Assembly: GCA_012295275.1 (NCBI GenBank)
Contig: CM022672.1
Location: 28,830,001 to 28,894,000, forward strand
Length of the DNA stretch: 64,000 nt
DNA from: Chrysomallon squamiferum
Taxonomy: Eukaryota; Animalia; Mollusca
Direction: 5' to 3'
In this document: in pieces, positions 4,499-44,168 of the stretch
Numbering within the stretch: the stretch's first letter is position 1
How the letters are laid out: the number at the start of each line of letters is the position of its first letter
Notes under the pieces: generated by a model
The model's input: only the letters and a program-made list of their open reading frames with translations
Told to the model about the DNA's origin: nothing
Databases searched by the model: none
Translations under genes and position numbers: made by a program

Positions 4499-4732
4499 AA
4501 GTCATCACAACAAACAATAATACCATCCTTTTTTGTCACATTATGACTGAATTCTAAAAGTCATCACAACAAACAATAATACCATTCTTTTTGTCACATT
4601 ATGACTGAATTCTAAAAGTCATCACAACAAACAATAATACCTTTCTTTTTGTCACATTATGACTGAATTCTAAGTCATCACAACAAACAATAATACCGTT
4701 CTTTTTGTCCATTATGACTGAATTCTAAAAGT
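4499..4732. repeat. Minisatellite, ~4 copies of a 56-59 bp unit
   Basis: gtcatcacaacaaacaataatacc(n)ttttgtcacattatgactgaattctaaaa repeated head-to-tail four times. Confidence 0.9.
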
Positions 4733-7947: not shown

Positions 7948-8151
7948 CTACAATAGGTTGACGGAGGGTTTGTGACAATGCTTGCCCTTCATGAACAAAA
8001 GTTTGTCTCGCTGAATTATCCGACCCTTGCACTTCAATGCAGAATATTCATGACATTTCCAGTAGATAGTGGTGCCCAGTTTTGTGGGCATTACCTTGTC
8101 CCTTACATAACCAAATCCATCGAAAACCAGTTTCATAGTCTTTCTGTCAGT
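7948..8151 (-). CDS. Gene A alternative terminal exon A-V1: FLYWCH-type zinc finger
   Basis: Acceptor ttatttattttcgcag|ACT GAC AGA, phase 0; 204 nt; LVFDGFGY..IYWKC..(x6)CKGR..KHCH fits the FLYWCH pattern. Confidence 0.8.
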   Translation of the reverse strand, partial: TDRKTMKLVFDGFGYVRDKVMPTKLGTTIYWKCHEYSALKCKGRIIQRDKLLFMKGKHCHKPSVNLL

Positions 8152-9885: not shown

Positions 9886-11230
9886 TGGAGTGCAAATACG
9901 TATGCACATATTAACGAGCATAATTAGTATACATGCATGTAAAATTTTGTGCTTGTCAATTTCGTAATCTTTATGATAGGATACATAAACACAGGCTCCA
10001 CCTCAGTGAACATGGTGTACAAAGTGTTGATTTAAGGGTATGTAGAGTGTTGATGTCTTCATGTATTTTGGTGTACATAGTGTTTCTGATCAATATACTG
10101 TACTTAGAGAACATACCACAAAAGTAACTGATTTAACTGACTTGTTTGATGCAATTTACTCAAAGGACTACTATAACTATCTCCTAATGTTTATAAAATG
10201 TTAAATAATGGTCATATTTTTTTCTTTTCTTATCAGGCTTCATAATACACAATGTACCAGTGTTATTATTACATAGAGAAACAAAACACCTTCCACGATA
10301 TTTTGAAGTACATTAAACAGAAGCATCGTATGAAACAACATCTTTGATATGTCACCCTGCAGGACATTTCACAAAGCATTCGCTTCCTCAAAATCAAAGA
10401 AAAAACACTGCAGTCACCTTTAGAGGCTATCCCTGTTAAATGTCATAAAACTGATGCAGAACCCTGTAACTCCACATCAAACACAAATCAATAAAACACA
10501 TGCATACGCTCAGACTGATCAACTACATGTATTTGTTGACAATCAACTCCTATCTGAGGAGGAGGTAGATATTTGAAAACAAATATGTGCACATTTACCC
10601 ACTTTCCTGTCTGAAATTAGCAAGTCAGGACTTTTAAAAGAATGGAACTGCATTATCCAGTTGATAGGTCAGTCTTGTTTTTCCATGAATAATCTTGCAT
10701 ATCTGCTGTTTCTGGAGGTTATTAGGTGGTTTTCCCAAGAGAATACATGTGCAACTACGTACTGCCATAAAGTTAACTATATTTGAAAATTGGCCACTAT
10801 TCTACAACAAGCATCTGACATGGATCTGGAAGATGGAACATTCAGTGCAGCAGCATCTTCAATTGCGGGCTGCTGTCAAGTATTGCTATCAACTACGTGC
10901 AAGTGAATAAGAAAACCTGAAAGAAATCAGGTTTTAAAAAAAAGCATGTTTTGACAAATATCTGGCATGGACTGGAAAAAGTGGAAAATGGCACTGTTTC
11001 TCAGTAGTATTCAGACATCTTTGTACAAACAGGCACCTGCATCAATGATCTTCGACAAGAAATGTGTGCATCAATTTCAGTAACATCATACCTACTTTTG
11101 AATGGTTAAAAACAGACAATGCAGTGAAACAGTTGTTGATCTTGACATGCAAGACAACTTTTTTTGCTTGGTTGGATTTGACGAAAATATGGTTGCACAA
11201 AGCCAATGCCAGTCAAATATCTAGAGCAAG

Positions 11231-11790
11231 TTTATTAAATAGAGGAGTCCACTATGGTTCAAACGTAAAAGTGCCCCTAACAGGCAGCACATTGTACAAG
11301 GTCCTTAGTCTTGAAAATCTTAAATCTCAAGTTACTCAATTTGAGACAAAATTCTTGGGATAAGCAGAGCCAGAATGTTCTGATGAATCTAAAGTTTTTA
11401 TGCAGCATGGGGTAGACAATGATATCAACACTGTAGCTACAACTGTTTCAAAATTATTACCTGCCTTTTATCCAGCTCTTACATTGTTTGAAGATGGATG
11501 CTCCTCTCTTAACATAACGGGAAACCTGTCTGCATTGTAATTGCTGATGGAAGTCTGCACAATGAGAAAGGCAATGATGTCATGGGAATAGAAATTAAAT
11601 ATCATAATCCTCAAAATATTTACACACTATCGGGTATGTACATGGTCCAAAGGTATTATGTACCCCAGCTTCTGTTGGAAATGAAGATTTTAAGAGTAAA
11701 GAAACTTCTTTTTGTAAAATTCACACCAGAAATGTCAACAGTTCTATGAGTATCATTTTCAGAATAACTTTGGCAAAAATATGGTCACAA
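11231..11790 (+). pseudogene. Decayed YqaJ/lambda-exonuclease-like PD-(D/E)XK nuclease, probably transposon-derived
   Basis: Manual translation across stops and frameshifts gives IK*RSPLWFKR..LTGSTLY..MQHGVDND..ADG..IEIKY..RYYVPQLLLEM..LLFV, i.e. the QRSxxW, LTGS, MxHG, (S)PDG, EIK and YYxQ motif order of YqaJ. Confidence 0.7.
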
Positions 11791-12619
11791 TGAAATAAAT
11801 GTATGCAATTACTGAACTCTGTACATCATTCATAAGCATTGTAACAAAGTTGCCTCCCATGAGAATTAATGTTAGATACTAAGCTATTTGGTTTTATACA
11901 TATTACACATGTATTCTATTTATATTTTCCACGAACAAGTATTACATAAGTAACTGACTTATATTTTCCGAGGATTTTACATGCACACTTCAAAGGTTAA
12001 AGTGTATCCTGTAAAATGTTTAACTGAAGCCTGAGAGGATGAAAGTGGACAACTCAGTTATGGATGGACAGCTCTATTCATATATACAAAAATATATATT
12101 CACCCAGAATATATATCATTACACACTGATATACATTCATTTTATTTTACTTTATTTATCCTTTAAACATTTAAGTGATCACCATTTTGATTAATCTGGA
12201 AAAACAGAAAGAAAACTCCAAAGCATTCGTCAATCACACCCGTATCACAGCCAGCTAAAGGAACACTTGTAGTGAAGTCTGAACAACATCATTTTAACAA
12301 ATCAAAGATTCCGTCACATATTAGAGAAGGAATAGATTGTTGTAGATGAGATACTAATAATCACAGTTGGAACATTTATTGTGTTTTAAGACCAACAAAC
12401 ATATATCTCAGACAAGTTAGAAATAGCTCAAAATTAGTTTTTAAAAAAGCTCTACAAGTGGTTTCTTTTAAGTAAAAGGGAAAGACGACTAAATTTTTAC
12501 AAGATAACAACACCATTTCTATATACAAAAAAAATAATATATAATAATAAGAAATAAATAAATGAAACACTATGATCTGAATGACATATTTATTTTGATA
12601 TAGCCTGACATTTATTTTT

Positions 12620-13281
12620 TATGTTTTGTAATTCCAGATCAATTTCTGACCACAATGACATCTGATTTTTGGATCACCATGCATAATTTTAACATGGCCT
12701 TTTTAAATGGCACACAGTTTTGCAAAAGGGGTCCTGGCATGAAAATGTCTTCTTTCCAGTGCACTGTTTAACATGTCTTGCCAAATTACAATTTTTATTG
12801 AAAGACTTTTTGCATACTTTGCATATGTGAGGCTGCTATGTTATATGAGTTGACTGATGCACCTGGAACAAATCACGCTAGTGATATCCTTTGTTGCAGA
12901 TATTGCAGGTAAACTGGTATTTTTTGGAATGAGTTTTATAATGTAGTTTTAGACCCCACCTGGATTTATACTTGCCACCAAATTCTTCACAAATGAAGTT
13001 GTGGGCACTAACTCTATGACTTCTCATTTGTTCTGCTGTCTCAGACATTTATGAACTACGATGTATCAGCTCCTGGCTACTGTGTTTCAATAGGATGTGA
13101 TGTTTGAAATTGGAGTTTACTGCAGTTTTGTATCCACAATGACAGCTGTAAAATTTAACAGGTTGCCAGATTTCTTTAACTGGTGGAGGCTTTAAAGCTG
13201 TCGATGTGGAAAATCCTAGATGCTCTGATTCATCCAGGAAACTCCCCAGAAGTCCACCTGTCTCTGATATATTCATGTCAT
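12620..13281 (-). pseudogene. Decayed multi-zinc-finger coding segment
   Basis: Acceptor ttttatattacag| at 13281, ATG at 13276; frame continues past in-frame stops: FICEEF..GLKLHYKTH, FTCNICNKGYH*..H..H, CKVCKKSF..LARHVKQC, then a frameshift to HGDPKIRCHCG. Confidence 0.75.
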
Positions 13282-13887
13282 CTGTAATATAAAATTAAAC
13301 TTTGTTACTATGTGAATGAAACCTATTGAGAATTGGACAAGTCTGCATAAAATTTAAATAAAATTCATTATAAAATTTTAATTGTCAGAATAGTTTTTAC
13401 TGAAGATAATGCCTGCACTTAATTATATAATGTAATGTCTTGCAAAAGTAACCTTACTTTAAACTAAAACAGCAACAAAAAAGTAAAACATTGATAAACA
13501 GTACTCCATACACCAATCACCAACACTCCATATGCAGCAATATTCACAATTTTTTGTAATAACTAACTTGCATATATTGGCTTAATGTTAATATACAAGT
13601 ATTTCAGCTAACTCTGTGTATTATTTAACACAATAATTTTTATTATTTGATTGGTAACGACCTTTTCATAACAGTAACTGTCATCGATTTCACTTAATTA
13701 TTATGTACCATTCGGTGCTTATGCTTTTTGTCAACAGGCCTTACTTATTTCATGCTGTATATTATATACTGCAATATAAGTTTAGAAGCAAGAAGTAGAT
13801 TATAGGTATTTATTAAGAAATTGATTAATTTCAAACTTAAAACAACAAAAATTTCACCTACCAGATGAAGGGAAATGAGCTCCTTTG

Positions 13888-13941: not shown

Positions 13942-16900
13942 CACTTTTGCTGCCATTTGACTAATAAAAAAACTGCACATAGTTTATTTTAAAAAACCAT
14001 GAAAGGAGGTATTGTGTATATTTTTGTGAGGTGGTATGTGAAAGATTCACTGAAAATGTATAGCAACCTCAAGTACTTACTTACATATATTTAAAACAAT
14101 ATCATTTCAGATACTTGCAAAATAGGCAGCTGCCCAGTGTGCTGATTTCAGGGAGAGCATTTCTCCAAATCAACAATAGTTTTGAAAAATAAATAAATAA
14201 AGATCAGTTTTAATGAGGGTCGTTTTTTATCCTGTTCTATTTCATACTGGGACAAATAATCAGGTAGATTCAGGCTGACTGGAACAAGCAAAACAGGTGA
14301 GTGAAAATTGTGCATACATGAAACTTACAGGACGTAATTATGTTTGCATGTTTTTAAAGGCCATGAGTTTTTCCATAGAATCACACATTATACAAAACAT
14401 TTAGTTTGCCGCAAAAACCAAACTGAGGGCAGTAACTCCTTATTTTAATGGTATAAACAAGGTAAGAAATTGTCCCTGACAGCAAAATCTTGCCTCTAGA
14501 GATCGCAATAAATAATGCTGAAAATAAATGTTTTAAAAATATTGTTTATAAATTCTGAAACTGATATTTTCCGGGGGTGCCAGAATCAAACCATGCCTAG
14601 GGATGTAGATAGCCTGGTGCAGGCGCTGTTCACAGCAGTCTTCATTTGATCACAAACTGCAATTCCTTTTTTGCTGCCCATTGTGTTCACATAGATCTAC
14701 AGAGCAATCAAGAATTGACCAAAAAGCCTTTATTCTAAAACCTTTGATTTTTAAATAATTTGTTAGGAAGTTCGAAAGTTTACACAGTATAGCTGTTCAA
14801 TTCAATTAATAAAAATAAAAATAAAAAAATTAAAGATGAATCAAAAAATATATTTGCTAAAAACCACAGTCTATATATATAGCATTCTCATAAATACATT
14901 TTATCTTATATAACAGCATAACATTTATGATGTTTACTAAGGTATATTGACAATTAATCAATGTTTTTAAAATCAGAATTTATAATAAATAAGTAACTAA
15001 ATAAATTATTTTTCAAAAACTGAAAATTTACTTTTCTTTTTTTCTTTCTTTAATTTCCTGTCAGTATCAGAAATAATCCAATTTTCCTTTGGACAAGTGT
15101 TGTATGGATTTTACTAAAACAGATTCCTATAATACTATATTACAATACAAATGCTGACGTTTGTATTTACACTTATGTAAATCATTGTGTGTTACCAATT
15201 ACAGCAGCCAAAATGTTATAATTTATATATATTTTCATTTTTACTTAATACAGAACTTTTGAATACAAACACAAGAAAAGTTTGTTATAATATCTTGCTT
15301 ACTTAGTGAGTTACATTTTGAATACTGACATCAAAGTGGCAACATCAGCAAATGAGCTGAGCCATTTTTAGCCACTCATAACAAATATTAAACTGATTAA
15401 TTAACAAATTACTGTGATCATACCTTGATATCTGTTTTACAAGAAATATGCCACAAATTTTCAAAGCTGAAAATGTCAACTCCTGAAACCTGAGAAAAAC
15501 AACAATGTGTAATTTTCTGGAATTTAAAAGCCTGAAAGTACTCCACATAGAGAGCACCTGTTATTTATTTTTTTGACAATGATACTAGAATTGTCTAATA
15601 CAAAGAAAAAGGCCAAAGTGACTAATGTGGGACGTGAACAGACAACTACAGTATGAAAACATACAAAAGGATGTAACTTAAAAATATCATGTCTTTTGAA
15701 TGAATAAAGAAAATAAACTATTTTGTCATTAACTGCAGTTTCAAACATTTCAGTGTTGAGCTAAATTTGAATCTGGCATTTGGTAACATCTTGTTGAGTC
15801 GGAACACTGGGAAATCTGCTTGCAAATCTATGCATGAAGGTCATTAAAAGGAAGGGGTTCACTATCAATGACAAGATCAATGGTAGGATTTTAACAGAGA
15901 GCATCAAAAGAAGAACTTTTCAGTACTGCTTAAGTAAGTTCATTTTCTTCTGAAAATATCCAACTAATTTTCCCAGGTGGCTGGAGGAAGAAAGACAGCT
16001 CAATGTCATTGTCATTTTGTTCTTCTGTTATGATGTTCTTTTCAATCTCATTCACAAGCTGTACCAAGGTGTCTCTCCACAGAACTTCATCCCATGTTTT
16101 GTTTGTATGTAGCTGCTCTTTGAGGAGATACTTTTGTATTACAAGCTTATAACTGAAGGAAAAACTGTATCTTCTTTCAAGGAATACTCTGCTCATGTCT
16201 GAATATATATAGCATCTTCTGGAAACAAACACCCACAAAGTCAGCAGTAGTACAGACTGTTAGCATTACCAGTTTCTGTGTGTTTTTGGGGATAGGCAAT
16301 ATGACTTTTGTAAAATTATCATCTTCTGGAAACAATTACACAACTGAAGTAAAAACTGTCTTTAACTAATCTGTTATACTTAAACAATTCTTAGTTATTT
16401 GTTTAAGTCAGACTACATAAATGAACTTACAAAAAAAAAAAAATCATTTGATTAAACAATAATATGTTCCCATACCATAGATATATTTTTAATTAAAACA
16501 ACAAAATTCTATTTAAAAACCATGTAACTGGAATGTGATACATGTTTAATTAATACAGACAGATGGAAAGCCAATTTTACATTATCAATATATTCAAAGA
16601 AAATTTTAATTTTTGAAATAGTGATTAATGTTTAAATTAGTTAGCTATATATGATATTTTCAGAATGTTGTAAATGAACATCACTGTTAAATATATCTAT
16701 ACCAGAAAATAACAGCTGTACCTGTAATTTTAAAATATTAACAATTTTATTGGCAGTGAGCCTTTGTTAGTAGAATAGTATAACAACAAAATATTGATAT
16801 CTTGCAATTTCAGGGAACCCTTTTTAACCTTTGGAGCTGCAGCCCTAATACCATCATGAATAACATACTTAACAAACAAAAAAAAATAAAAATAAAAATA

Positions 16901-17951: not shown

Positions 17952-18322
17952 CTGTGCAAACTTGGGCTTGCTGGTTGTTGGTTGTGTCTGTGTGTTCCAA
18001 GTCGAGTCTGAAACATTGGAGTCAGGAACACCAAAAGTTACTTGTAGCTGAGCAAGATCAGAATTGTCCCCACCATTGTCTGGACTGTCAAGCAATACAA
18101 TGTCATTAACCTCTTTTTTAATTTCAATGTTTTCTGGCAAAGGTAGACGAATGCTTTCAGATGTGAGAGAAATGGATTGATTGTCACTGTGAACTGAGTC
18201 ACTAGATGATGGCTTTGTTTCTGTCTCACAAACACTTTTTAAAGTGTCACTATCTGCTTCAGATATAGGATTAATCCTCGTTGCTGCATTAATAAGAGAA
18301 TCTAAATCACCATCTGTCTTAT
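17952..18322 (-). CDS. Gene A constant coding exon 2 (Ser/acidic linker), last common exon
   Basis: Acceptor ttttgatttcag|AT (phase 1, completes G+AT=Asp); donor CAG|GTATAG phase 0; 371 nt; homologous to 26970-27385 (SESIRLP.PE, ND.V.LDSP). Confidence 0.85.
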
Positions 18323-20114: not shown

Positions 20115-20859
20115 CTTTTTTCACTAAAGGCCCGTCATCTGACTTGGTTAAATTTCGCTTTTGACTTTTTATGACATCATTACTTTGGTTGTCTTTAACA
20201 AACGGGCCTGTATCTACATTATCAAGAACATCATCAGTTTGATTTGTAGAAATCTGGATTGAATGCCTGGGCTGAATTTCCATAATCTCCTGGTTATCAT
20301 GTCCTGAGGCATGTGAATCATAAGAATCTGAATGTTTTTCTGCCATCTGATTTGGTGCTCCTGCTGCAAATGAGGTTCTCTTGTTTGAAGACATCAATGG
20401 TGAATGACCTGATATATTATTATGAGGTTGTGAGCTAGGTGACTTAGAAAAACCAGAGGTTAAATGATGTGAGTTAGCTGTCCTTTGTCTGAAAGATGAT
20501 TGTAGAACTGTATGATGTGATGACCGTGGTTCAGGACTATGTCGAAGATCTATTGTTACCTCCCTTGAGGATGCAATTCCTGCTGCCTTGATATTGGTAC
20601 TGTCTCTAACTACATCTCTCTTCTGAGGTAATCGTTTCATAGTTTTGAACGCTTTTACACAGTAACTCTCACTGATGACATCACCAGTGTTGTGAACCAT
20701 CTCACTCAAAACATAGCGTTCTTTTTTGTAATTGTCTATTTCTAAAGAAAGGTAACCACTCAGTTCCACTGCCTGTTCAAACTCTATATAGTCTCGACAG
20801 AATTTCTGCATTGCTTCCACAAACTTGGTGAAGAACTGGACAGAATATTGTTTATCCAT
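20115..20859 (-). CDS. Gene A constant coding exon 1: conserved 78-aa N-terminal domain plus disordered region
   Basis: ATG at 20859 after acceptor ttttttcag| (exon start 20891); donor AAAAAAG|GTGAAA phase 1; first 78 aa are 75/78 identical to gene B. Confidence 0.9.
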
Positions 20860-23026: not shown

Positions 23027-25447
23027 GTATTTTTTGCTTTTTAATTATTTTTTAACTTGTGTGTATTTCTAGATAGATTTGGTTTTCGAAATTATTGATT
23101 TACGGTGCCTGAACCTTCCTCTGCTACGTGTTCAAACTCAGTCATACTAAACAGCATCCACCAGTATGGCTGCATCCAGTTTGTTTTACATGATTTCCGT
23201 CAATTTGGTGACATCTGTATGAGAAATAAGCCAGATTTTATTTATTGGATCAGAAAGAAAAGTACTTCCATAATAGCCAATTTAGAACATGGTCGGGGAT
23301 GGGGTTGAAGCCTTCTAGATTAATAATAATAATAATAATAAAAAGCGAGTATAAGCATACTAACAATAATATTAAACCGATGATGATGATGATGATGATG
23401 ATGATAGTAATAATAATATGAAGAATAAAAATAAAGAATCTTATGATGCTAAAAATGTAGGTACTTTATTTCTCTTGTAGGTTAAGTTATTTGCAAGAAT
23501 AATATTTAATATATGTTATGTATTAATATATATTATATCACTACTTAATAACAGTGTCTAAAACTTTTGCCTTAATATTATATTTATTCATTTATAATTT
23601 GTCAACATAAATGTTTGATGTTGTTTGAAATGTTAGATATAAGTTAGTATTTTCTAACAATTGCTGTGTAATTATATATTAATATGCATGTAGACAAGCA
23701 GACGTGTTGTATTTCTTTCTTTTTTTAATAAATGAATTCATTGTTATTAATATTTTTTGCCTAACAATAGTAAATATTTAAACCTTAGATTAACTTATAT
23801 GATGATAGGGATAATAACAATATGATAATAAAGGTATAAACTGGGATGTTCCATTTTAGTGTAATATAAAAAAATTAAAAAAATGTATTGGTAATTCCGA
23901 AATCTGATTAAAACACAGAGAAAGGTGTATCATTTTTTTGTTCTTTGTTTGAAAAATTATTTCTGACATCGTCACCCTCACTTACTGTCATGGATTTTCG
24001 TTTGTGATTTGTTTTTGATGTATGGATCACAGAAATAATTAATAACGAAATTTTGGAAAATCTGACTCTACTCAAGGAAAATTCATATTTAATTGGGGTT
24101 TTGTTTTATTATTTTAACAATTTCCCACCATTTTGAAGATCTTAAGTGGCACCATCAACCTACCGAATCTGGGGTGGGGAAGTATCAGAAGAAAAAAAAA
24201 AGAGAAATAAAGTCACAACTTTTAATAGAAAACAATGTACTGGGAAATGAAAGAAACATTTTTGTGAATGGTCTTCATTTTCAATATTGGTAGTTTAAAC
24301 TGATGTTCCAACGTTTTTATCGTGAAGCTAATTCCAGCAACTAGCTACTTAGCTCAGTATATTCTGACAGTGTACCGTATTTATGAAATATTCAGGTTCT
24401 GGAAATGTAGAATAACAAATACATTTCTTGGTGAATGGCATACCTTCGGAAAATGCTAACGCCATAACTGCGATACCATTCAAACATCTGAGCCCCTTCT
24501 TTCAGATAAGGTTACCATACAATCAATTAAAATATCACATCAGTATTAATAGAAAGTGTTCAGTGGCGCCCAGGGCTTGTGCCAAACTTGGAATACCCTA
24601 GACAAGCCACTGTCTACATCCCCTTACGGTTTGCACCATTTAATTGTCATATTATGGATTTTTAAACTACCTCCAAATGCCATTTTTGCCATGTATAATT
24701 ATTATTATATATGTATTTTGTTTCAAACTAGATGATATCTGAGTAGGTTTTATCTTTGTTACTTGAGATATTAAAATGTATCAAAATACATCATCAATGT
24801 TTTGGTTTTTGGTGATTGCAAGTGTTAATTTCTAATTCAAAGTGACTTATATATATATACTATACCCTCATTGTTCGGATTTACTATCTGAAAATTGAAA
24901 CTGGGAATCGAATAACTACAGTTTTTTAACTTAACAATGGCATATTTAATAATAATAATAATAATAATAATTATAATTTTTATTTATTTATTTATTTGTA
25001 TGTTTATTTATTTATTGTAAAAATGAAAGAAACTTTAATTATCCAAGGATAAAGGTATGTTTTTATTTTTCTTTGCTGAAAGTTAATCATTTCTCTCATC
25101 ATGCTGATTTTCACTCGTCTAAGATGAAAAATATCAAGAACACCCACAAGTCATTCATTATAAAATGTTTTTTGGCACATAGCTCAAGGGCAGATAACTC
25201 TCGAAATAAATTTTGGAAAGTTACAACCCTGAGAACCCAACGTCAAGGGTCGCAGATAATGTTAATCAACCAAACAGCTGAAAAAACGATAATTTAAAAG
25301 CTGGGTAATCCGTGTAAGTATATATATATATATATATATATTTGTATTTAAAAAATTAGTAACTGAATAAACATTTAAAAATATTAATAGATATTTATAT
25401 CACTGATGCGGTATATTGGCGTAAAATGTTTCCAATGTTTAAAAATA

Positions 25448-25761
25448 AAAATGGCGGATGTCTTGCACAAGAATGCAGTTGTTAATAACTATTAATATTA
25501 GATAACTTTCTGTATTTATATATCTAGACATTTAAAATAATTGTTTATACAAACTGGTAGATATTACTATTATTTTTCTATTCATACAAAATACCGTTAC
25601 AAAATCAGTTCTTCGGTATTTGGAACAAAGAAGCCGCCATTTTGCAATATTTATTCTAACAAAGAATTCAGGTGTCCTTGACCTAAATAGTGGTAGACTG
25701 TTTTGCTAAAGTTTGTTAAATAATGTCAACGTTTTAAATTAGTTATACATTAACAAATCAG
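25448..25761 (+). promoter_or_regulatory. Candidate gene B promoter and 5' non-coding exon with two YY1-like motifs
   Basis: AAAATGGCGG at 25448-25457 and GCCGCCATTTTG at 25633-25644; strong donor CAG|GTAAGC at 25761, with an acceptor at 26031 before the ATG. Confidence 0.5.
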
Positions 25762-26048
25762 GTAAGCCTTATTTTCTAAAACATTTCGCAATAAAATAAA
25801 CTTTTAGACATTACTGTGAAGAAAATACATTTTATTTATTTATTTATTATTATTTTTTTAAAGTCAAATATATTCATTTTAACTTTTCCAATTTGATGTA
25901 ATTTTTCTAAAAAATATTTCCAGTAAAATACTTAAATGTTTTAATGTGTTGTGCATATATCATTATATGCTGTTCGTTATCTTAAAAACATTTTATTAAT
26001 TTTTTAATTTAATTGTATTATCCATTGGTAGGTATACATTGAAGCATA

Positions 26049-26679
26049 ATGGATAAACAATATTCTATCCAGTTTTTCACAAAATTTGTGGAAGCAATGC
26101 AGAAATTCTGTCGAGACTATCTGGAATTTGAACAGGCAGTTGAACTAAGTGGTTATCTTTCTTTAGAAATAGATAATTATAAGAAAGAAAGATACATTCT
26201 GAGTGAGATGGTTCACAACACTGGTGATGTCATTAGTGAGAGTTACTGTGTAAAAGCCTTCAAAACTATGAAACGATTACCTGTTAGAAACAATTCAGAC
26301 ACAGTGCTCAGAGATAACACAAATATCAGAAGATCATCTGGTAAAGAAGTGACAGTAGATATTCGAGATAGTCCTGAACATCAGGTTTCCTCATACAATT
26401 CACATCATGGTTATTCTCCAACATCACAGCGTCATAATGTGTTGGGGAGGCGAGCACCAGCATTTGCTGCTGGTAGTGCATCTCAGGTTACTGATGTACA
26501 AAATCGTACATTAAATGTTGCAATGCAGATTCAGCCAAGACAATCACAGTTTTCAAGTTCAGGAATGACAACTGATGACACAGTGCTAGTAACAGTTGGA
26601 GATAGTAAAATGGGTTCTGGTGTGAGAGGGCAGAAAAGAAACAATTCACAATCAGAAGAATCACCTCTTCATAAAAAAG
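26049..26679 (+). CDS. Gene B constant coding exon 1: conserved 78-aa N-terminal domain plus disordered region
   Basis: ATG at 26049; donor AAAAAAG|GTATGT phase 1 at the same protein position (PLxKK|) as gene A. Confidence 0.9.
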
Positions 26680-26969
26680 GTATGTTTAATATAAGTTGCA
26701 CGTGTGTAAATGTGTCCAGAAAAAACCCATGAAAATTTACTTGGATTGTTAAACATACAGGTCAAAATACATGTTAAAGTTATCTCCTGTCTGTTTTAAC
26801 ATTTTCTGCCTTTATTACAATGAAAACATTAAAGGAATATTTAATCTCTGATTTTTGATAATTTATTTTATGTCATTAAATTTAATTCGGTAAATTTCCC
26901 TAAGTTTTTACCTAGTGAAACTTTAAATGGGATTTTCTCATATTTTTTTTTTTTTTAATTTACTTTCAG

Positions 26970-27385
26970 ACAAACTAGATACAGATATTGAATCTTTATA
27001 CAGTGCAGCTACTAGTATTGTGTCTACTTCTGAATCTGATATTACAAAGAACAGTTATTCAGCTGTGACAAAATCTAACATATCACAAAATGATACAATG
27101 CCAAATTTCCATGAATCACAATGTGCAGAACAAAAAGAGTCATCTGAAAGCATACGTTTACCAATCCCAGAAACTGTGACAGTTAAAGAAGAAAATGATG
27201 TTGTGTTCCTGGATAGTCCATATGAAGGCTCAAATAATGACTTTGATTCTTCTCAGATGGAAAGTTCTTTTGTGATGAATGAAAGTTCTCATGGTTCACA
27301 AGGTAACTCAGGTGGAAACCCAGATGATCTAGAAACACATTCTCAAACAGCTGGAAAAAACAAAGCTCATGTCAAGGTATTTCAG
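26970..27385 (+). CDS. Gene B constant coding exon 2 (Ser/acidic linker), last common exon
   Basis: Acceptor tttactttcag|AC (phase 1, G+AC=Asp); phase-0 donors AAG|GTATTT (27376) and CAG|GTACAG (27385); homologous to gene A exon 2. Confidence 0.85.
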
Positions 27386-28967
27386 GTACAGTGTGTCTTT
27401 TTTACAAACTTACATAGTTACTATTCAAGATTTGCTTTGATGTTAAAGTATTTATAAAATTCACACCTTGTGTTTTAATTTTGTAATTTTTAATTTTTTT
27501 TTTATATCTGGCATGGAAATAATTTTATTAAATTTAGTTTTTAAAAAAAACATGATTTATGCATATTTGTATATATTTTTTTACAAATAAATTTATTTAA
27601 AGTGTGTACAGTTGAATTACATTCCTACAAGTTAAACATTTTTAAATGTAAAAAAGGATGTTAAAAAATATATATATATATTTAAAATCATTAAGTTATG
27701 AACAGGAACTAAGCACAATATCCAGCATAAACTGGATGAATCATCAGTTACTAAATAAAATGCCAACATTTAAACATTCAACTATTGTCAATATTGTCAT
27801 TGTAATTGGAAATGATCTACATATTTATATTCCAGGATAAATATGTGCTATTGGTACATCTTCAAACTTAGCATAGAGCTGAATAAAAAAAAAAAAATTA
27901 ATGTTTTTATTAAAATGAAGCAAAACCTAAACAAAAATTACAAAATGTAAAACTTACAACTTCATAATTCTTTGTGCAGAAATCCTATGTGACACAGGAT
28001 TTGAGTAAAAATTCTTCACTAGTTAATCTGGCAGACTAAAATTGTCATATTTTAAACCAAGGTGTGAGTTTCTTGCTTAAACATCAAATCCTAACAATTA
28101 ATTTGTATGACATGAAATGAGTAGAAACAGACTGCTTCATATAAACAACAACTTGGCATTTTAGAAAATTATTTACATTATTATATATGTGTATATATAT
28201 ATTTGAATATGTTTAAAAAGAAAGATAGCTAATGAAAAAGCATGTAGATCAAGACTACAAGTTGGCTAATTTGTAAAATCTAAGTTGCCACAGTTCTGAT
28301 GAAGTGCAAAAATATATGCATTATAATTTAATAACTGTAACCCTAAATCCACAGTCTCAGACAGTTTAGTTTAATACTACTGGATTTTTTTAAAATTTAA
28401 TTTAACTCGTCTAATTAAACAGTACTTTTTTTTATAGGTGTTCAAACTATTATTTTTATAATGAATAACAAATTCTATTTTATTGAAAGATACAACTTTT
28501 AACATTCTTTTTGAACTTAGATGTAATCAACTTTAAACTTGTAAATTTACATATTCAGTGTCAGTAACAGCAAATAAGTAAATTAAAAAAAGAAAAGAAA
28601 AAGAATCTTCTTAAAATAGACAAACCTTCATATATTATTTTTGGGATATGGGTTGGTTAAATGCCATATTGCTGTTTTATATATATCTTATTGTCATAGA
28701 TTTTTATTTTTTATTAAATGGGATTCAAAATAAACATAAATAAACAGCATTCTGTTAATATTGCTGGAATATGAATTCAAGCTGTTTGCATATTCTATTT
28801 TATTTTCAAATGAGGTTCGAAAATAATGTATTGCATACTGGTTTGCACTGCTGGCAGATTGGATTTGTTTTTGTTGAAGATTTTATTTTTCACAAATGCA
28901 GTATTTGCTGAATTTCAAATTAAATAATTAGCATGACATCTGAACATTTCAAACAAAAAACATTATT

Positions 28968-30418
28968 TAGGTACCGGCAGCCTAGCTGATATAATTGGTT
29001 GAAGCTGTTAAAAGTTAAGATTTTGTCCATTTTCCTCCACTCCCAAATCCCTTCTATAAATCCTACCATAAAAAACAAATACATGTAACTAAAGATCTTT
29101 ATGTGCTCTTTTAAATGGTGTTGTTGTTGATATTGTATGTTTAATCAGTTCTTTGTGCGAGAGTGTTAAACGCTGTAGGTGTAAACAATTAACGTGGAGT
29201 AAAAAGTCCTAAAATAGGGTCGCTCTACAAACGCCTGGCTTGTTTTTGCCAAAATGGCTTCAATGTTATTTTTAGCACATCTAGCAGGGTCAAAGTTCAG
29301 TCTTTCTAACAGTGTGCATGTTGTCGTTGGCAGTGGCTTATGTCAAAAGTTGTGTCCAAAAACGTACTTTTTCATGCCTTCAAACCTGTTTTAAAAAAAA
29401 CTGGCTGAAAATAAAACCTATGTTCATGGGATCAAATGAAAGATCATTCAATTATCTTTCAAACAATGTGCGACACTACAGTGTGTCGTCTTTGGCGAAA
29501 ACAAGCTCCGCGTTTGAACATAGCACATGATTAGCGAAATTGCCGTAGATCTTGTGTACAGCTAGAAAGGTCTGGCGCTGTTTAAAATGATTATATTTAT
29601 ATGTTTTTTATATTTTTAATAACTTGTTGGTTGTTTGTTTTTCTTCAATGTTCCTACTTTTAGTGTATACATTATAGCACGTGCATAGCGAAAATGCGTT
29701 CTGAAATAAATAAACTTAACATTGTTTTGCTGATTACTATCTTCAGTTTAAAACATCAAATGCTTGTAGACCTTTTAAGTAACATTTATATATATATGAT
29801 ATATACACATCACAGTATCTTAACTTACTACCAGTTATTTAATAGAGTGAAAATTGAAGCTGCTTATGTAAATAAAGTTGTGCTGTTCTATATAAATTGA
29901 AAAGGTAATTTTTTTTTATGGGCTTGGCAGAATTTTAATTTTTTTTTTATTACAAATGTTAAATTCAAGTATGTCATTTGAAAGTTCTTGATAAATTGTT
30001 CACAACACAGGTTGAATTTGTCAGATGAAACAAAAACTGAAACCACAGTGTTTATTTGAACTTTTACTCATTCTGCCACGTGTTATTTTGAAGATTTTGG
30101 CATTTTCAGCATGTTATTGTGAACACACATACAAACATACAGGTCTGAAAAAAACTGAGCTCATTTAGCCAGTTGGTATTATCACTCTTGTTGATTTTCA
30201 GCCTTTTCTGTCAATTACTTTTCAAACTACAGTTGGCCAAAGTAGCCCTTTCTGCAAATTAGCCAAAATAGGGCTAAAAAACAACCAAATACCTGTCGTA
30301 CCGATTTGCATATATCTTTTTAACCGCTGGAGACACAGTCATAATTTTTTCTTTGTTTTCATTCTTTTTGCATATTATGTGAAATTAAAGTCAGAAAATA
30401 TTTCCCTGCCGGTACCTA
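28968..30418. mobile_element. Non-autonomous DNA transposon (hAT-like), ~1.45 kb
   Basis: Perfect 13-bp TIRs TAGGTACCGGCAG / CTGCCGGTACCTA; flanks cattatt(t) and cattatgt look like an imperfect 8-bp TSD; interior more CpG-rich; no transposase ORF. Confidence 0.7.
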
Positions 30419-31270
30419 CATTATGTATAAAAAAAATAATGCCAGTTCAAATTAGTTTAATTATTTTATTACTTTTCTATTTTATATCTTTCTACACGTT
30501 AGGTTAAACCAGATATAAAACTCATAAATTGTAGATGTTTTCTGCATTGAAAGTTTTGATAAAGCAAAATATCCCCAAAACCCTCCCAAAACAACAAAGC
30601 AAGACTGTTTTGAATTTGTGTGAGAAAGTGATAAATAGCTGAACTAACCCAGCCATTGTGAATTTTGTTTTTATATTGAAGTCCTTTTGAACATATCAAT
30701 ACTTGCCATAAACATTTACATGTATACTGACATTGTTTTTAACAAAACAGCAAAAACATGACAATATCATATTTGTAGAAATTTTAAACCTATATTAACT
30801 TATTCATATTGTTTTTTAATGCCAGCTCTTTATCATTAACATTAACACTATATATTATTAAATTTCATTAAGAAGTATGTTTTGTGTGTGTGTGTGTGTG
30901 TGCATGTGCGTGCGTATTTGCCCATGTATACTTCTGTGTGTTTGTGTGTGTAAAATATTTGTTAATAGAAAAACAATCTATGTTTATGTTTAGACTATAC
31001 AAATCTATATTAGTTACATGATTGTTTGCTTGTATAAATTTCAGCAACAAACTTTGTCAGAGATTACTAACATCAGACTGTTTACTACTTTTTATTTTAT
31101 AGTTTAATTTCATAATTTACATCCTTTTATTCTGTAGTAGGAAACCTAAAAAGGATTATCAAAATTATTTTGGTATTAGAACTTTTTAATAAACAGTGAA
31201 AACAGTAGCCATATAATACATAGTAAAAGAAGAAAACTAATACTAGTTATTTTAAATATTGAATTCTTAC

Positions 31271-31274
<4 letters not shown>

Positions 31275-31310
<36 letters not shown>
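31275..31310. repeat. (TA)n microsatellite
   Basis: Perfect TA run. Confidence 0.9.
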
Positions 31311-31314
<4 letters not shown>

Positions 31315-33600
31315 AATACTAAAACAGATTGGGCATCAGAATTAGACTTCACTTGTTGGATCCTGGTGATCTTATTGTTGTTGGAAAACTTTTCTATTTA
31401 ATTCAGAACCAGGCTCCTAAAATTTGTTAAATGCTTTATCACTAATTATAGAAATTAATTTCTGTGGTTTTTTTCCATCTAAAAAAGTGAGACGGTGTTG
31501 GAGATTATTAAGATTGGTAATTGATTTTATTTTGGCTACAGCGGACAATATAAATAAAACGAACAGCATTTTATTCAAAACCAACTAAAATATATGAACA
31601 AGCAATCAACAACAAAGTATATGGGTTGCCTAAAAACATTGATTTCAGTTCATCATGTTCTGATCTCATGTTCAGATAGCTTTCATGACAACTGAAAGGT
31701 GTACATTTTCTAATATACATTGTACCTTTTAATTTATAGATTTGCCTTAAACTGCATCAAATTTTAATTGAGTATGTATATTTTCATATTACTAAAAGCA
31801 TTATGCATAAATCCAGAGTATATTTTGAGGAACAATGTTTAATTATTATCTTTGACTTGTTTTTCTTTTTTTTCTAATTTTAATGTCAGTTGTCCACTGT
31901 GAAAACTGTTAATGGCATACCTAGATATAACACAGATATATTAATATTTTTTATTTATTTATTTTTTAAATATAATGTTGAATTAGGCAAGAGCAAGATA
32001 CAAATCTTGAATTTACTGGACTGTTTTACAATCAGTGGTCTTGGGCAGTAGACCACAGTATGGTAGAAAGCATGCAAGTCATGTTAATTTATGTGAAAAA
32101 CTGATATACAGTTTCAAACTGATATTTATGAATGGTAACAAAAATTATTAATGCAAATACTGCTCTGACAGATAATGATATAGGCACAAACTAGGATATT
32201 TTACTACTTGTGCCTGTTCCTTTCAGGTCAGGGCCTGGAAACCCACTTGAAAATTATTATACTGGTTATTAAATATAATTTTGGCAATAAAAATCATTAC
32301 TAATATAAAGGGGTTTTTTTTCTTGTATTTTTGTAATACTGGAATTTATAATTAGGAAGACAACCTTATTTTCTAAAGACTGTCTTGAAATTGCATATAA
32401 AGATTTTATTAGAAATATGGAGAGGGACAAATAAACATTTCAGCTTTTAATAAATTCAGTGGTACATTGAGTTATAATGCTAGCAAGACTTGCAAATGTA
32501 ATTTCTGTGCACAGTAGTGCATATTACAAGAAAAGGTTTTTTAAGAAAAGTATTATACCCAGGCATACTTTCTGTTTTAAACTGACAGTATTATTTCATT
32601 CTTTCTTTTTTCTTCCATATAACAAAAATAAAAACAAAAAAAAAAACAACTTTCCAGTTGGTTAAATATAAATTAAAATTGAAATTGGTTCTAGCAAATA
32701 TTTTAAAATTAACATTGGTGTGCCAGTTTTTATTGGAACTAAATGAACATTTCAAATTTGATCTCGAAAGGTACTGAGACATCAAAAAAAAAAAAAACTT
32801 ATTTTCCCAAAGTATCAGTCATCAGTGATTTGCCCTTGATGGCAATGTCACATTTGTTAAAAGCAAAACACAACAACAAAAAAGGAACATTAATAATAAA
32901 GCATTACATATATCAAAGATAATATTGTAACAGTGGTTATTGTTACTTCAGTACAGTGTCACTTGCCAGTTTAATAAGGCAAAAACAAAACACACTGTGT
33001 TCCTTAAAAGTTAAATATGCATTAAAAATAGTATAATCATTTAGATGACTGATTGATTTTTTATTAAGGATGCACTTATTAATCTACTGCAGATCATCTG
33101 AGAACACTTTAAACTTTTAAAAAAAAGCAGTTAAAAAAAATAATTATATCCTTATATTTTATGTTACCAGTATTATTATAGGTAGAAAATACGTTGATTA
33201 AAATAAATTTTAAATTTCTCTTGAGAAGACTGACTGGATTAGTCCGCAATTTGGATTTATTGTGTATATTTAATACAGCAGAAATTATTTATATTTGAAA
33301 CGTTTTACCAATCAATGCAAATTTGCTTTAGTTAGAAAAAAACAAACTTTCTTCAACAAAGATTCAGACTTGTTATGTTGAATAGATCTGTTCTTCTATT
33401 ACACAAAGAAAAAACAAATGTCTGTTGGTGTATTTTAAAACTGTATATATGTATCATGGTCAACCTAGTTAAAACCTTGTCTATACATCTACACAGAAAA
33501 TTAATAATTAGTAATAACTAATGTTATTCTTATTTTATATTATTAGACATTTGCAGTAGAATTAATAAAAGCTTTAAGACATTCTTGTTGTTTTCAGCAG

Positions 33601-33954
33601 AATACCAGTCATCCATATACGGACATAAAATCATTTCACCAGTCTCTATCAAGGAAACCACTGCATGTTTGCAATAAACCATTAAATGAGAAAAAACGAC
33701 AAGTACCTCATAAATTTCATCAGTGTGATCTTTGTGACTACAAGAGCCTCTACAGGACCAATCTTTCACGCCACAGAGGCAGTCATTTTGGCATTTCTTT
33801 TCAATGCCCCTTTTGTCCAAAGCAGTCAAAAGATAAATATGAACATGCTTATCACTTGAAAGGACATGCTGGACAACTTAGCTGTCCTACCTGTGGGAAA
33901 CAGTATCATTCCCTTCCAGGATTAAATCATCACAAACGTACTTACAAACATTAG
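33601..33954 (+). CDS. Gene B alternative terminal exon B-V1: three zinc fingers (not in ORF track)
   Basis: NAGNAG acceptor ttgttttcagcag|AAT ACC, phase 0; 354 nt open with no Met: NTSHPY..CDLC..HRGSH, CPFC..HLKGH, CPTC..HKRTYKH*. Confidence 0.85.
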   Translation, partial: NTSHPYTDIKSFHQSLSRKPLHVCNKPLNEKKRQVPHKFHQCDLCDYKSLYRTNLSRHRGSHFGISFQCPFCPKQSKDKYEHAYHLKGHAGQLSCPTCGKQYHSLPGLNHHKRTYKH

Positions 33955-34559
33955 TTACAAATTAAATTTCCCTGGAAAGCTGAGGGTATGCCTTTAGTAA
34001 AGCAATGTTTGTTTGTCCAAACAGTAAATCATTTAATGGGTTTTTGATTTTTATATATAAAAAAATTGTTTAATCTCTTTGTACCATTATTTTCTGAAAA
34101 ATTGCTTAAAACAAAGTACATATATATTTTTATTATATATATATATATATATATTTTTGTTTTTTCATCATGAATCATAAGTAGTTTTTAGTTAGGACTG
34201 TAAATTTGTCTAAGCATTACAATTAAACAGATTGATAGCCTTAGGCTTTAATTATTTTTTCAACTGAAAGTATGATTCAAAAGTTTAATTGTCAGTTACT
34301 GAAAAAGAAAATGTGTGATTAAATTATAACAGAAGAAAACTGAATTATATTTAATTTAGTAGTGTTGCATTAAATTTAGGCATGAAATATTTAAAAAGCT
34401 ATAAAGTAATAAAAATTCCTGATGTATAATCATTCAGTGGTGGTTTTTTTTGTATTGTTTCTTGTTGCATATCACTTCTTTTTTTCTGTTGTATATAATT
34501 TAAATTTGACAAATTTGACAACACAAGAAAGTTAAAAACCAATTTTCATTTATCTTCAG

Positions 34560-34895
34560 AAAACCAAACTGCATCATAAGGCTTATAGCATCAGGCCAAG
34601 AGCAAAGGAAGCAAATCAATATGGCACTAATTCTTTTAGAAGTACCAAAAAAATAATGAAATGTGATCAGTGTGATTATACAACATTATATCTGACCAAC
34701 CTGAAAAGACATAGGAGTGCTCACTTAGGAGAATATTTTCCTTGTAGTCTCTGTCATAAGGTTATGAAGGACAAATATGAATTGAATTCACATCTGAAAG
34801 GACATGCTGGATTGCTGACTTGTAGAACTTGTGGAAAACAATACACATCTCTCAGTGGATTGAATTGTCACAAACGTACCTATAAACATGTGTAA
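34560..34895 (+). CDS. Gene B alternative terminal exon B-V2: three zinc fingers
   Basis: Acceptor ttcatttatcttcag|AAA ACC, phase 0, 32 open codons before the ORF-track Met. Confidence 0.85.
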   Translation, partial: KTKLHHKAYSIRPRAKEANQYGTNSFRSTKKIMKCDQCDYTTLYLTNLKRHRSAHLGEYFPCSLCHKVMKDKYELNSHLKGHAGLLTCRTCGKQYTSLSGLNCHKRTYKHV

Positions 34896-36059: not shown

Positions 36060-36392
36060 AGTTCAATTGCCCCCGCTCCTGAAAGGAGTATTTTGCAATT
36101 TGGTGTGAAAGCAGGGGTTGATATGATGTCCACGTCAGGCTTGCAGAAGAAAGTCTACAATTGTGAAGACTGTGATTATCAAACATATCGTTTATCTAAT
36201 TACCAGGATCATAGAAGAAAACATACTGGGGATTACTTTCGATGCAGTGTCTGCCCATGCCAATTTTCAAACAGGTCAAATTTCAGGAATCATATGAAGG
36301 GCCATGCGGGTTTGCTGAAGTGTGAATCTTGTGGCAAAATGTATACTTCATTAGCTGGGCTGTTGAATCACAGAAAATGTAAATGTGTTTGA
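36060..36392 (+). CDS. Gene B alternative terminal exon B-V3: three zinc fingers
   Basis: Acceptor ccttatttctgcag|AGT TCA, phase 0; CEDC..HRRKH, CSVC..HMKGH, CESC..HRKCKC. Confidence 0.85.
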   Translation, partial: SSIAPAPERSILQFGVKAGVDMMSTSGLQKKVYNCEDCDYQTYRLSNYQDHRRKHTGDYFRCSVCPCQFSNRSNFRNHMKGHAGLLKCESCGKMYTSLAGLLNHRKCKCV

Positions 36393-39361: not shown

Positions 39362-39724
39362 GATATGAATGTGTTTGATTATCATCATATGAAGAAACTG
39401 CAATTCCATAGAACACAAATTTCAAGCACTATAGAGACTGCTTCTAGTAATGCTACAGTACGGAAGAAAAAGCAATATAAGTGTCATGAGTGTAATTACA
39501 AGACGTGCTATTTACAAAACTATCAAGATCACAAAAGAACACACACTGCAGATTACATCAAATGTCCCTTGTGTCCAAGGCAATTTGCAGGCAAATCAAA
39601 CTATACCAATCATTTAAAAGGACATGCTGGTCTGCTCCGATGTTCAACATGTGGTAGAAGTTACTCATCACTGGGCGGGCTAAGTCACCATAGGAAGACT
39701 AATAAATGCAGTTCATTTATTTAG
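39362..39724 (+). CDS. Gene B alternative terminal exon B-V4: three zinc fingers
   Basis: Acceptor ctccttatctccacag|GAT ATG, phase 0. Confidence 0.85.
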   Translation, partial: DMNVFDYHHMKKLQFHRTQISSTIETASSNATVRKKKQYKCHECNYKTCYLQNYQDHKRTHTADYIKCPLCPRQFAGKSNYTNHLKGHAGLLRCSTCGRSYSSLGGLSHHRKTNKCSSFI

Positions 39725-40894: not shown

Positions 40895-41251
40895 GATACA
40901 AGACAACATACTCCTAATGAATTGAAGAACTTGCAATCTGATAGAAGTATAAGTATTTCATCACGTTTCATGTCATCAAAAATGCCTTCAGCCCAACGGA
41001 AGATTCACAAATGTCAATATTGTAATTACCAATCTTCCAACTTGTCAAACTTCAAGGATCACTGGAGAAGACACACTGGTGATTACTTCAAATGCAATCT
41101 CTGTGCAAAGCAATTTCCCAGCAAAGCTAATTATATCAACCACATGAAGGGACATGCAGGCCTGCTGAAATGTGTTGCTTGCAGTAAGAATTATTCAACT
41201 CTTGGTGGGCTTATTGCTCATCAGAAAAGACATAAATGTGAAGCTCTTTAA
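40895..41251 (+). CDS. Gene B alternative terminal exon B-V5: three zinc fingers
   Basis: Acceptor ctccttatcttcacag|GAT ACA, phase 0. Confidence 0.85.
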   Translation, partial: DTRQHTPNELKNLQSDRSISISSRFMSSKMPSAQRKIHKCQYCNYQSSNLSNFKDHWRRHTGDYFKCNLCAKQFPSKANYINHMKGHAGLLKCVACSKNYSTLGGLIAHQKRHKCEAL

Positions 41252-41953: not shown

Positions 41954-42310
41954 GATGCAGCAACACTTGCATTCCATGATTGGCGTCAAATGCATTTTGA
42001 TAGCAGACCAAACCTATCCATAAAACAGACTGGAAATCGTGTTCGAGCTGGAAACCATAGAATCTACAAGTGCGAAGACTGTGCATACCAGACAAATCAC
42101 TTATCAAAATTCCGAGACCATAGAAGAATCCACACAAAAGATTATATCCAGTGTGAGCTGTGTCCAAGACACTTCTGCAGCAGATCAAACTATTCAAACC
42201 ACATGAAGCTGCATGCTGGTCTGCTCAACTGTAGCATCTGTGGCAAAAAATATTTTTCTTTGTCAGGATTTCTCTCCCACCAGAAGTTGCACAAAGGACT
42301 GCCTCATTAA
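41954..42310 (+). CDS. Gene B alternative terminal exon B-V6: three C2H2 zinc fingers
   Basis: Acceptor atccttatctctgcag|GAT GCA, phase 0. Confidence 0.85.
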   Translation, partial: DAATLAFHDWRQMHFDSRPNLSIKQTGNRVRAGNHRIYKCEDCAYQTNHLSKFRDHRRIHTKDYIQCELCPRHFCSRSNYSNHMKLHAGLLNCSICGKKYFSLSGFLSHQKLHKGLPH

Positions 42311-42814: not shown

Positions 42815-43150
42815 ACTTCGGCTTTATCTAGTTCAGTTGACTGGGATGAAGTACATTACAGGAACAGAAATCTGATATCTGCCAGAAAAAGAAGAAAGAA
42901 GATTCATTTCTGTGATGATTGTAACTATCGGACATCCCACATCACAAATTTCAAGGATCACAGGAGGATACATACTGGAGAATATATTAAGTGCCCTTTG
43001 TGTCCAAGTCGGTTCTATAGCAAATCTAACTATGGAAGTCATATGAAAGGTCATGCAGGCTTGCTAAAGTGTCCAGTATGTGGAAAACAGTATACATCAC
43101 TTGGTGGTTTATTGGCTCATAGGAAAACCTGTGAGAAACAAAATTGTTGA
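42815..43150 (+). CDS. Gene B alternative terminal exon B-V7: three zinc fingers (not in ORF track)
   Basis: Acceptor ttcattatctctgcag|ACT TCG, phase 0; 336 nt open: TSALSSS..CDDC..HRRIH, CPLC..HMKGH, CPVC..HRKTC..*. Confidence 0.85.
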   Translation, partial: TSALSSSVDWDEVHYRNRNLISARKRRKKIHFCDDCNYRTSHITNFKDHRRIHTGEYIKCPLCPSRFYSKSNYGSHMKGHAGLLKCPVCGKQYTSLGGLLAHRKTCEKQNC

Positions 43151-43838: not shown

Positions 43839-44168
43839 CATTCTCAACTGCTGGCCTTACATCGGCCCAGTGATGCAGCAGTTTTTACCAAAACATCTGT
43901 TAACAAGAAGAAGATATTCCACTGTGATGTATGTAGCTACCAGACTTCTAATTCAACTCATATCACAAATCACAAAAGAATACACACTGGAGAGTATTTT
44001 AGATGTCATCTCTGTCCAAGTCGCTTTTCCAGCAGAAGTAACTATGCTATTCATATGAAGGGACATGCAGGTTTACTCAAGTGTGCTGTCTGTGGAAAGA
44101 CGTACACTTCAATACAAGGACTTATATCTCATAGAAAAATGCACAAGCTGTTTCCAAAACAAAGTTAG
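43839..44168 (+). CDS. Gene B alternative terminal exon B-V8: three C2H2 zinc fingers
   Basis: Acceptor attattctttcacag|CAT TCT, phase 0. Confidence 0.85.
   Translation, partial: HSQLLALHRPSDAAVFTKTSVNKKKIFHCDVCSYQTSNSTHITNHKRIHTGEYFRCHLCPSRFSSRSNYAIHMKGHAGLLKCAVCGKTYTSIQGLISHRKMHKLFPKQS

Follow-up and report, generated by a model that had tools for sequence, protein, structure and literature searches.

The question raised by the 64,000-nucleotide stretch of Chrysomallon squamiferum DNA analysed here (contig CM022672.1, positions 28,830,001 to 28,894,000; hereafter the window) is what kind of domain opens its two genes. The window is AT-rich animal DNA with a guanine-cytosine content of 22–36%, and it holds two head-to-head genes lying 5.2 kb apart, one on the plus strand (ATG at 26049) and one on the minus strand (start at 20859). 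Coordinates below are window positions and residues are numbered from the ATG of each gene. Both genes begin with nearly the same segment, which we refer to as the head domain. Our analysis identifies a real and previously undescribed domain family within a gene design that is itself of known type. We consider it probable that this domain of about 70 residues heads a mollusc family of likely transcription factors with alternative DNA-binding last exons, where it likely serves as a self-association module.

The head domains of the two genes are identical at 75 of 78 residues. The differing positions 7, 25 and 50 are occupied by I, L and I in the plus gene and by V, I and V in the minus gene; the substitutions V7I, I25L and V50I reported in an earlier note, made from the sequence alone, are therefore confirmed, with the notation running from the minus gene to the plus gene. 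The many synonymous changes described there are also present, 15 of the 18 differing codons being silent. The comparison of nonsynonymous (dN) and synonymous (dS) divergence that the earlier note had proposed as a check gave a Nei-Gojobori dS of 0.49 and dN of 0.024, a dN/dS of 0.049 (Fisher p 5e-10), whereas the linkers of the two genes are identical at 104 of 316 aligned positions (33%). The same pattern holds in each of the four comparisons made between paralogues or orthologues, with 96–100% identity over the domain versus 33–63% over the linker. The closest named proteins, from the vent snail Gigantopelta aegis, are 95–96% identical over the head domain; for the orthologues the values are 96–97% over the domain and 53–63% over the linkers, and identity with the abalone domain is 71–72%. 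These comparisons show that the head domain is under strong purifying selection. The sharp divergence noted earlier after the MKRLP motif is a steep drop, as claimed, and falls short of a complete one, the next ~30 residues being still alignable. The unit conserved family-wide spans residues ~5–74, and the MKRLP motif is specific to the subfamily of the two window genes.

The AlphaFold2 model calculated with 111 family sequences contains a helix at residues 5–24 followed by strands at residues 30–41, 45–56 and 64–74. Its mean predicted local distance difference test score (pLDDT) was 79.6, with values of 86–93 over residues 11–50, a predicted template modelling score of 0.62, and a range of 74–80 for the five models. 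This supports the earlier description of a helix followed by alternating hydrophobic strands, to which a third strand is added, and together with the dN/dS value and the linker divergence it bears out the claim of purifying selection on a folded domain. A first AlphaFold model based on 15 close sequences was all-helical, of low confidence (pLDDT 62), and was discarded. At 19 positions of the family alignment, hydrophobic residues account for at least 90%. The predicted helix carries a 140-degree hydrophobic arc beside a stripe of small residues at positions 12, 16, 19 and 23, and hydrophobic residues also occupy part of the second sheet face (0.95 at position 50, 0.74 at 36 and 0.56 at 38). 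The net charge has a median of -2 (range -6 to +3) and conserved basic positions are few. Residues G35, D42 and E53 are invariant in 111/111 sequences, and near-invariant positions include F9, Q18 (103 sequences), C21 (107), F27 and Y49, as well as E32 (99) and K46 (96). In the model, G35, D42 and E53 could serve to shape a long hairpin, as a turn and a cross-strand pair.

We found no known family to which this domain could be assigned. No Pfam family matched the head domain at E ≤ 10; the 111 family members hit 23 Pfam families at E ≤ 0.01, and BTB, KRAB, SCAN and ZAD were among the hits of 0/111, in agreement with the earlier failure to match these four. Sequence searches of the PDB with a single protein, A1 and A2 as queries gave no match to the domain, the one chance row (E 0.054) lying outside it. 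The BTB domain has a mostly helical core of ~95–120 residues with five helices, from which the head-domain model, with one helix and three strands in ~70 residues, departs. ZAD (zf-AD) domains bind zinc through two pairs of conserved cysteines, whereas C21 is the only conserved cysteine in the head-domain family (107/111; the next best, C67, is found in 40/111). KRAB and SCAN are all-helical folds, whereas three strands are predicted from the 111-sequence alignment. Judged by profile and by predicted topology, the head domain falls outside the BTB family. The ESM Atlas returned three bacterial hypothetical clusters at 0.93–0.94, which had no Pfam family or alignment and could not be confirmed, and a member of the other subfamily gave no usable match there; a scan of metagenome contigs yielded 83 pattern matches, of which 0 were confirmed. 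No description of the head domain was found in the literature searched, which covered titles and abstract starts, with few subscription journals and no supplements.

The domain is not confined to the two genes described in the earlier note, as it heads a large mollusc family with many classes of tail beyond C2H2 fingers. A profile of 15 close domains retrieved 239 representative proteins at E ≤ 0.001. Among the best 150 of these, 30 were looked up and 21 carried names, comprising 19 gastropod and two bivalve proteins; no cephalopod or non-mollusc protein was found among these 21, and 89 weaker matches lie outside the best 150. The two main subfamilies are ~25–30% identical and align over 72 columns in HHalign with a probability of 99.7. 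The head domain was present in 279 of 283 proteins, always in a single copy (279/279), and in 270 of them it starts no further than residue 30. Most exceptions to the N-terminal placement are long Vertnin-like proteins (P0170, P0281, P0282 and P0284; 1650–1900 residues), in which a further conserved N-terminal motif precedes the domain, itself placed near residue 90. The precomputed family PF28388 matches these Vertnin-like proteins only. Family-wide, the tails comprise C2H2, psq-HTH, BEN, FLYWCH, homeodomain, CENP-B/Tc5 and DUF3504 modules, the last of which is present in 17/111 aligned members, and several of the tail families are transposon-related (DUF3504, Tc5, zf-Tnp_2 and FLYWCH).

The layout of one shared head with alternative tails recurs in limpets, abalone, periwinkle and apple snail, as judged from isoforms annotated in databases. 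The 100 G. aegis proteins trace to 21 different 5' ends, which share a single 91.7-Mb scaffold; two or more annotated tails follow 14 of these ends, up to a maximum of 19, and the tail classes are C2H2 arrays, psq-HTH, BEN and DUF3504. The seven isoforms of G. aegis LOC121383032 (P0103–P0109) keep their BEN start and exchange the last 40–50 residues. Isoforms of a single Patella gene end in a homeodomain or in C2H2 fingers, the isoforms of Littorina include an X30, and those of Pomacea an X11 with a FLYWCH tail. The earlier note had asked whether homologues elsewhere also sit upstream of finger exons; by annotation, homologues in G. aegis, Patella, Haliotis, Littorina and Pomacea precede alternative tails of several classes. 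Several members share one scaffold in each of Patella, Haliotis rufescens, Littorina and Pomacea, which suggests, from scaffold lengths and locus numbers, an old gene cluster. Our phylogeny was a quick tree built on few columns with long-branch warnings, and no order of events is read from it.

Exchange of tails was observed in RNA contigs of the plus gene. RNA evidence consisted of contigs from four runs (X1–X4) of one study, mapped over window positions 25500–27460. Beyond the donor after position 27385, run X2 has a contig that reads into the first 30 bases of the three-finger exon p7 (42815), and run X4 has one that reads into the first 30 bases of the three-finger exon p2 (34560); contigs of runs X1 and X3 end at this donor. 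One donor of the plus gene thus joins at least two different three-finger exons. These joins, together with the homologues across gastropods, uphold the lola-like place proposed for the domain, upstream of alternative last exons. The gene has 18 candidate tails in all, made up of 16 three-finger cassettes (p1–p16), the exon p17 and a three-exon tail, and the recognition residues of the C2H2 fingers differ among the cassettes. Trans-splicing is reported for lola and mod(mdg4). Our RNA contigs do not distinguish cis- from trans-splicing; all candidate exons lie on the same strand as the shared exons, so cis-splicing suffices.

What the head domain does was approached by analogy with Tramtrack (TTK)-type BTB domains and from its surplus of hydrophobic surface, and on this basis self-association, as a dimer or a higher assembly, appears more probable than not. 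It is suggested by the 19 near-invariant hydrophobic positions, which are many for one helix and one sheet, by the hydrophobic residues on both sheet faces and the stripe of small residues on the helix, and by a neutral-to-acidic charge unlike that of a DNA-binding surface. Also, the tail modules are short and of the same kinds as those carried by multimerising TTK-type BTB proteins in arthropods. In function, the head domain is likely an equivalent of the BTB domain of lola and mod(mdg4), to which it is unrelated. The proposal starts from a head domain that is under strong purifying selection and is the sole part common to the family, and from shared front exons that are spliced to alternative last exons with putative DNA-binding modules, annotated relatives reaching 30 isoforms. 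In the predicted alpha-beta-beta-beta fold, one helix would rest on a three-stranded sheet, and two or more copies could pack via their sheets and helices. Such packing would give the short DNA-binding tails avidity. Mixed complexes, able to read pairs of sites or to bridge distant DNA, would then form between different isoforms and between near-identical paralogues (the products of the two window genes, for instance), and the system would parallel the arthropod TTK-type BTB genes by convergence, without using a BTB domain.

Several observations weigh against this proposal. The case for self-association is built from analogy and from the pattern of conservation, and a monomer docking a shared cofactor would look similar. 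The third strand (residues 64–74) is the least certain part of the model, with a pLDDT of ~68–70, and is matched poorly in the Vertnin-like members. DNA binding by the tails is predicted from their Pfam families. The RNA joins cover 2 of the 18 candidate tails, with one contig each from the four runs of one study, and the G. aegis orthologue of the plus gene appears in our results with three isoforms, none of them three-finger-tailed. Several members, including both named bivalve proteins (DUF3504 in P0144) and the Haliotis DUF3504 genes, appear with a single tail, and switching is accordingly not a property of every member.

The main rival explanation is that the head domain acts as a monomeric dock for a single conserved cofactor, either a co-repressor or a complex of chromatin proteins, much as KRAB docks onto TRIM28. 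The near-invariant polar residues G35, D42, E53, Q18, E32 and K46 could mark a partner surface maintained across subfamilies that are 25–30% identical, and a single copy at the extreme N-terminus would suit this function. However, G35, D42 and E53 also suit the structural hairpin roles described above, and the hydrophobic surplus on both sheet faces would be more easily buried by a like partner. We consider docking as the main function unlikely, though a serious contender; the two functions are not mutually exclusive.

Alternatively, only the sequence family may be new, with the head domain a very divergent member of a known dimerising alpha/beta fold, such as the roadblock/longin-like folds or the barrel subunits of TFIIA or NAC. 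Longin and roadblock chains were among the top rows of the structural comparison: 8yah_C scored Z 4.4 with a root mean square deviation of 3.0 over 64 aligned residues, and 7kek_G scored Z 3.8 with a deviation of 2.8 over 59, while Foldseek placed TFIIA and NAC chains at E 0.11–0.2. However, the best rows (Z 4.4–4.5), longin-like and unrelated chains alike, fall inside the stated noise range of the tool (Z < 8), where they tie with pilins, cystatins and GFP fragments, and the roadblock/longin rows (Z 3.2–4.4) span only part of the target chain. No match reached E ≤ 0.001 in Foldseek against the PDB or in a viral structure library; VIA-align over 48,161 chains gave none at Z ≥ 5 and no BTB chain among the best 50 rows, and a second look over 999 chains again gave none at Z ≥ 5. 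These blank searches do not establish the fold as new or as different, and we regard a known fold of this kind as improbable.

The remaining explanations have little in their favour. Many tails are transposon-related, and the head domain could by extension be a transposon relic or bind DNA or RNA itself; however, no transposase family matches it, and its slightly acidic net charge and scarcity of conserved basic positions would ill suit a nucleic acid-binding surface, which makes this very improbable. Least probable of all, and largely refuted as the main cause, is gene conversion or recent duplication between the inverted neighbours: N57 in both window genes versus S57 in all eight closest outside proteins, their grouping in the quick tree (82 in the Shimodaira-Hasegawa approximate likelihood ratio test) and the 2 nucleotide differences in codons 52–78 versus 18 in codons 1–51 speak for it, and some of the domain, such as the shared N57, may have been affected by conversion, but the clustering of differences is not significant (permutation p 0.34), the dS is 0.49, and identity of the domain to other-species orthologues of 96–97% (with their linkers at 53–63%), and of 71–72% to abalone, belongs to a family that conversion cannot explain.

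Features of the window that relate to the two genes are collected in the table.

Coordinates of the plus- and minus-strand genes, their shared exons and their RNA-joined or candidate last exons
Feature	Position	Strand	Remarks
5' untranslated exon, 3' end	25284-25313	+	donor GTAAGT next; joined to 26032; loose ends in runs X1 and X3
Possible second 5' exon	25595-25768	+	low-depth contig, run X4; donor near 25761
Shared coding exon 1	26032-26679	+	ATG 26049; head domain and low-complexity linker
Head domain of plus gene	26049-26282	+	78 residues; unnamed
Family core of head domain	26061-26270	+	residues ~5-74; from family alignment
Intron	26680-26969	+	GT..AG; spliced in 4/4 RNA runs
Shared exon 2	26970-27385	+	phase-0 donor after 27385, the switching point
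Candidate last exon p1	33547-33954	+	three C2H2-type fingers; acceptor 33547, 33598 or 33601; predicted
Alternative last exon p2	34560-34895	+	three fingers; RNA join to 27385
Candidate last exon p3	36060-36392	+	three fingers; phase-0 acceptor; predicted
Candidate last exon p4	39362-39724	+	three fingers; phase-0 acceptor; predicted
Candidate last exon p5	40895-41251	+	three fingers; phase-0 acceptor; predicted
Candidate last exon p6	41954-42310	+	three fingers; phase-0 acceptor; predicted
Alternative last exon p7	42815-43150	+	three fingers; RNA join to 27385
Candidate last exon p8	43839-44168	+	predicted
Candidate last exon p9	46693-47058	+	predicted
Candidate last exon p10	48124-48561	+	predicted
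Candidate last exon p11	49422-49769	+	predicted
Candidate last exon p12	50170-50526	+	predicted
Candidate last exon p13	51184-51525	+	predicted
Candidate last exon p14	51972-52325	+	predicted
p15	52966-53205	+	in-frame stop just upstream of fingers; probably broken
Candidate last exon p16	54058-54480	+	predicted
Candidate last exon p17	55974-56423	+	different C2H2 type; predicted
Three-exon tail	60497-60695, 61129-61236, 61532-62358	+	long C2H2 array; splice sites; predicted
Shared coding exon 1, minus gene	20115-20859	-	head domain 20859-20626
Shared exon 2, minus gene	17952-18322	-	phase-0 donor; 64% to G. aegis isoforms
Decayed multi-finger last exon	12740-13294	-	several in-frame stops
Candidate last exon, FLYWCH	7948-8151	-	Pfam PF04500, E 1.8e-14; acceptor present
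Candidate last exon m4	5530-5105	-	three fingers
Candidate last exon m3	3977-3651	-	three fingers
Candidate last exon m2	2920-2603	-	three fingers
Candidate last exon m1	2020-1661	-	three fingers

The plus cassettes cluster among themselves in tandem blocks and differ more from each other than orthologous cassettes do between the two species. No orthologue of them was found among the G. aegis proteins fetched, so that the array of 17 exons (33547–56423) is without an annotated counterpart there, through either loss or missing annotation in that species. The three-exon tail is the orthologue of G. aegis isoform X1, with 73% identity to P0043 over the finger exon. The end of shared exon 2 (27340–27385) aligns with a G. 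aegis segment that runs straight into a DUF3504-bearing tail, and from this alignment the donor used for switching seems to sever the beginning of the DUF3504 domain; neither a DUF3504 exon nor the tail of G. aegis isoform X3 was found in the window. Loose RNA ends at 26282 and 26325 show that this species has two or more additional paralogues of near-identical sequence.

Up to the window end, the minus gene holds six possible last exons, of which four are three-finger cassettes, one encodes FLYWCH and one is a decayed finger exon, and its 5' untranslated region is present in RNA contigs of runs X2 and X4. Cassettes m1–m4 have one-to-one orthologues among the annotated isoforms of the orthologous G. 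aegis gene, with 78–87% identity over the fingers. The last exon m1 is flanked by an inverted repeat pair of 494 bases (733–1215 and 2055–2534; 91% identical) that may represent a small mobile element present twice and would be able to loop out this exon in the pre-mRNA. A tandem repeat with a unit of ~59 bases (4496–4732) lies between m3 and m4. The regions 10000–12000 and 15930–16259 are slightly GC-richer, contain short open reading frames without a Pfam family and may represent decayed mobile DNA. Ten other open reading frames in the window had no Pfam family at its cut-off, and Rfam gave 0 matches across the window.

Like the ZAD, SCAN and KRAB finger families, the mollusc family combines a small lineage-restricted N-terminal domain, a low-complexity linker, C-terminal C2H2 fingers and clustered paralogues. 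It differs from them in the missing profile match, in one conserved cysteine compared with the four of ZAD, in a predicted sheet compared with all-helical folds, and in a diversity that stems largely from alternative last exons and not from gene number alone. Regulators are known to carry lineage-specific head domains, KRAB and SCAN in vertebrates and ZAD and TTK-type BTB in insects; no such family was found described for molluscs in the literature searched, and the family reported here fills this gap.

The closest parallel is with lola and mod(mdg4). According to one study, mod(mdg4) has at least 30 isoforms, mostly with FLYWCH, 17 of the 20 lola isoforms have different C2H2 ends, and TTK-type BTB domains, which pair with C2H2, helix-turn-helix (HTH) and FLYWCH modules, occur in arthropods only and form hexamers and heteromers (PMC11426971). 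The snail genes likewise have one N-terminal domain and a linker followed by many alternative 3' exons with differing DNA-binding modules, and shared 5' exons with same-phase last exons (27385 to 34560 and 42815 in RNA, phase-0 acceptors elsewhere), and the tail classes named in that study (C2H2, HTH and FLYWCH) recur in the family. However, the mollusc head is not a BTB domain by profile or predicted topology, and the mollusc layout recurs in a cluster of ~20 paralogues, with BEN, DUF3504 and homeodomain modules as additional tails. DUF3504 itself is Crypton-derived and is also carried by ZMYM2/3/4, QRICH1 and KCTD1, the long isoform of which joins DUF3504 to a BTB domain (PMC3212892). In the mollusc family DUF3504 lies behind the new domain, as one exchangeable tail among several in isoform X2 of the G. 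aegis orthologue.

The family is invisible in current annotation, in which isoforms of one gene bear the names of unrelated human zinc-finger or BTB proteins. Taking the results to their furthest extent, we tentatively propose, at somewhat less than even confidence, that molluscs may have their own combinatorial system built on an undescribed oligomerisation domain. It would consist of a cluster of ~20 genes with up to 30 exchangeable last exons each, many of them taken from transposons, whose products mix via near-identical heads; the lola/mod(mdg4) design would then have been invented independently, and hundreds of DNA readers would stand under unrelated gene names. If the domain oligomerises, this design arose more than once, and the family would offer a test bed for the capture of transposon-derived DNA-binding modules as last exons. 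Among its members, regulators of cell identity or with an insulator-like function may be sought in snails and bivalves.
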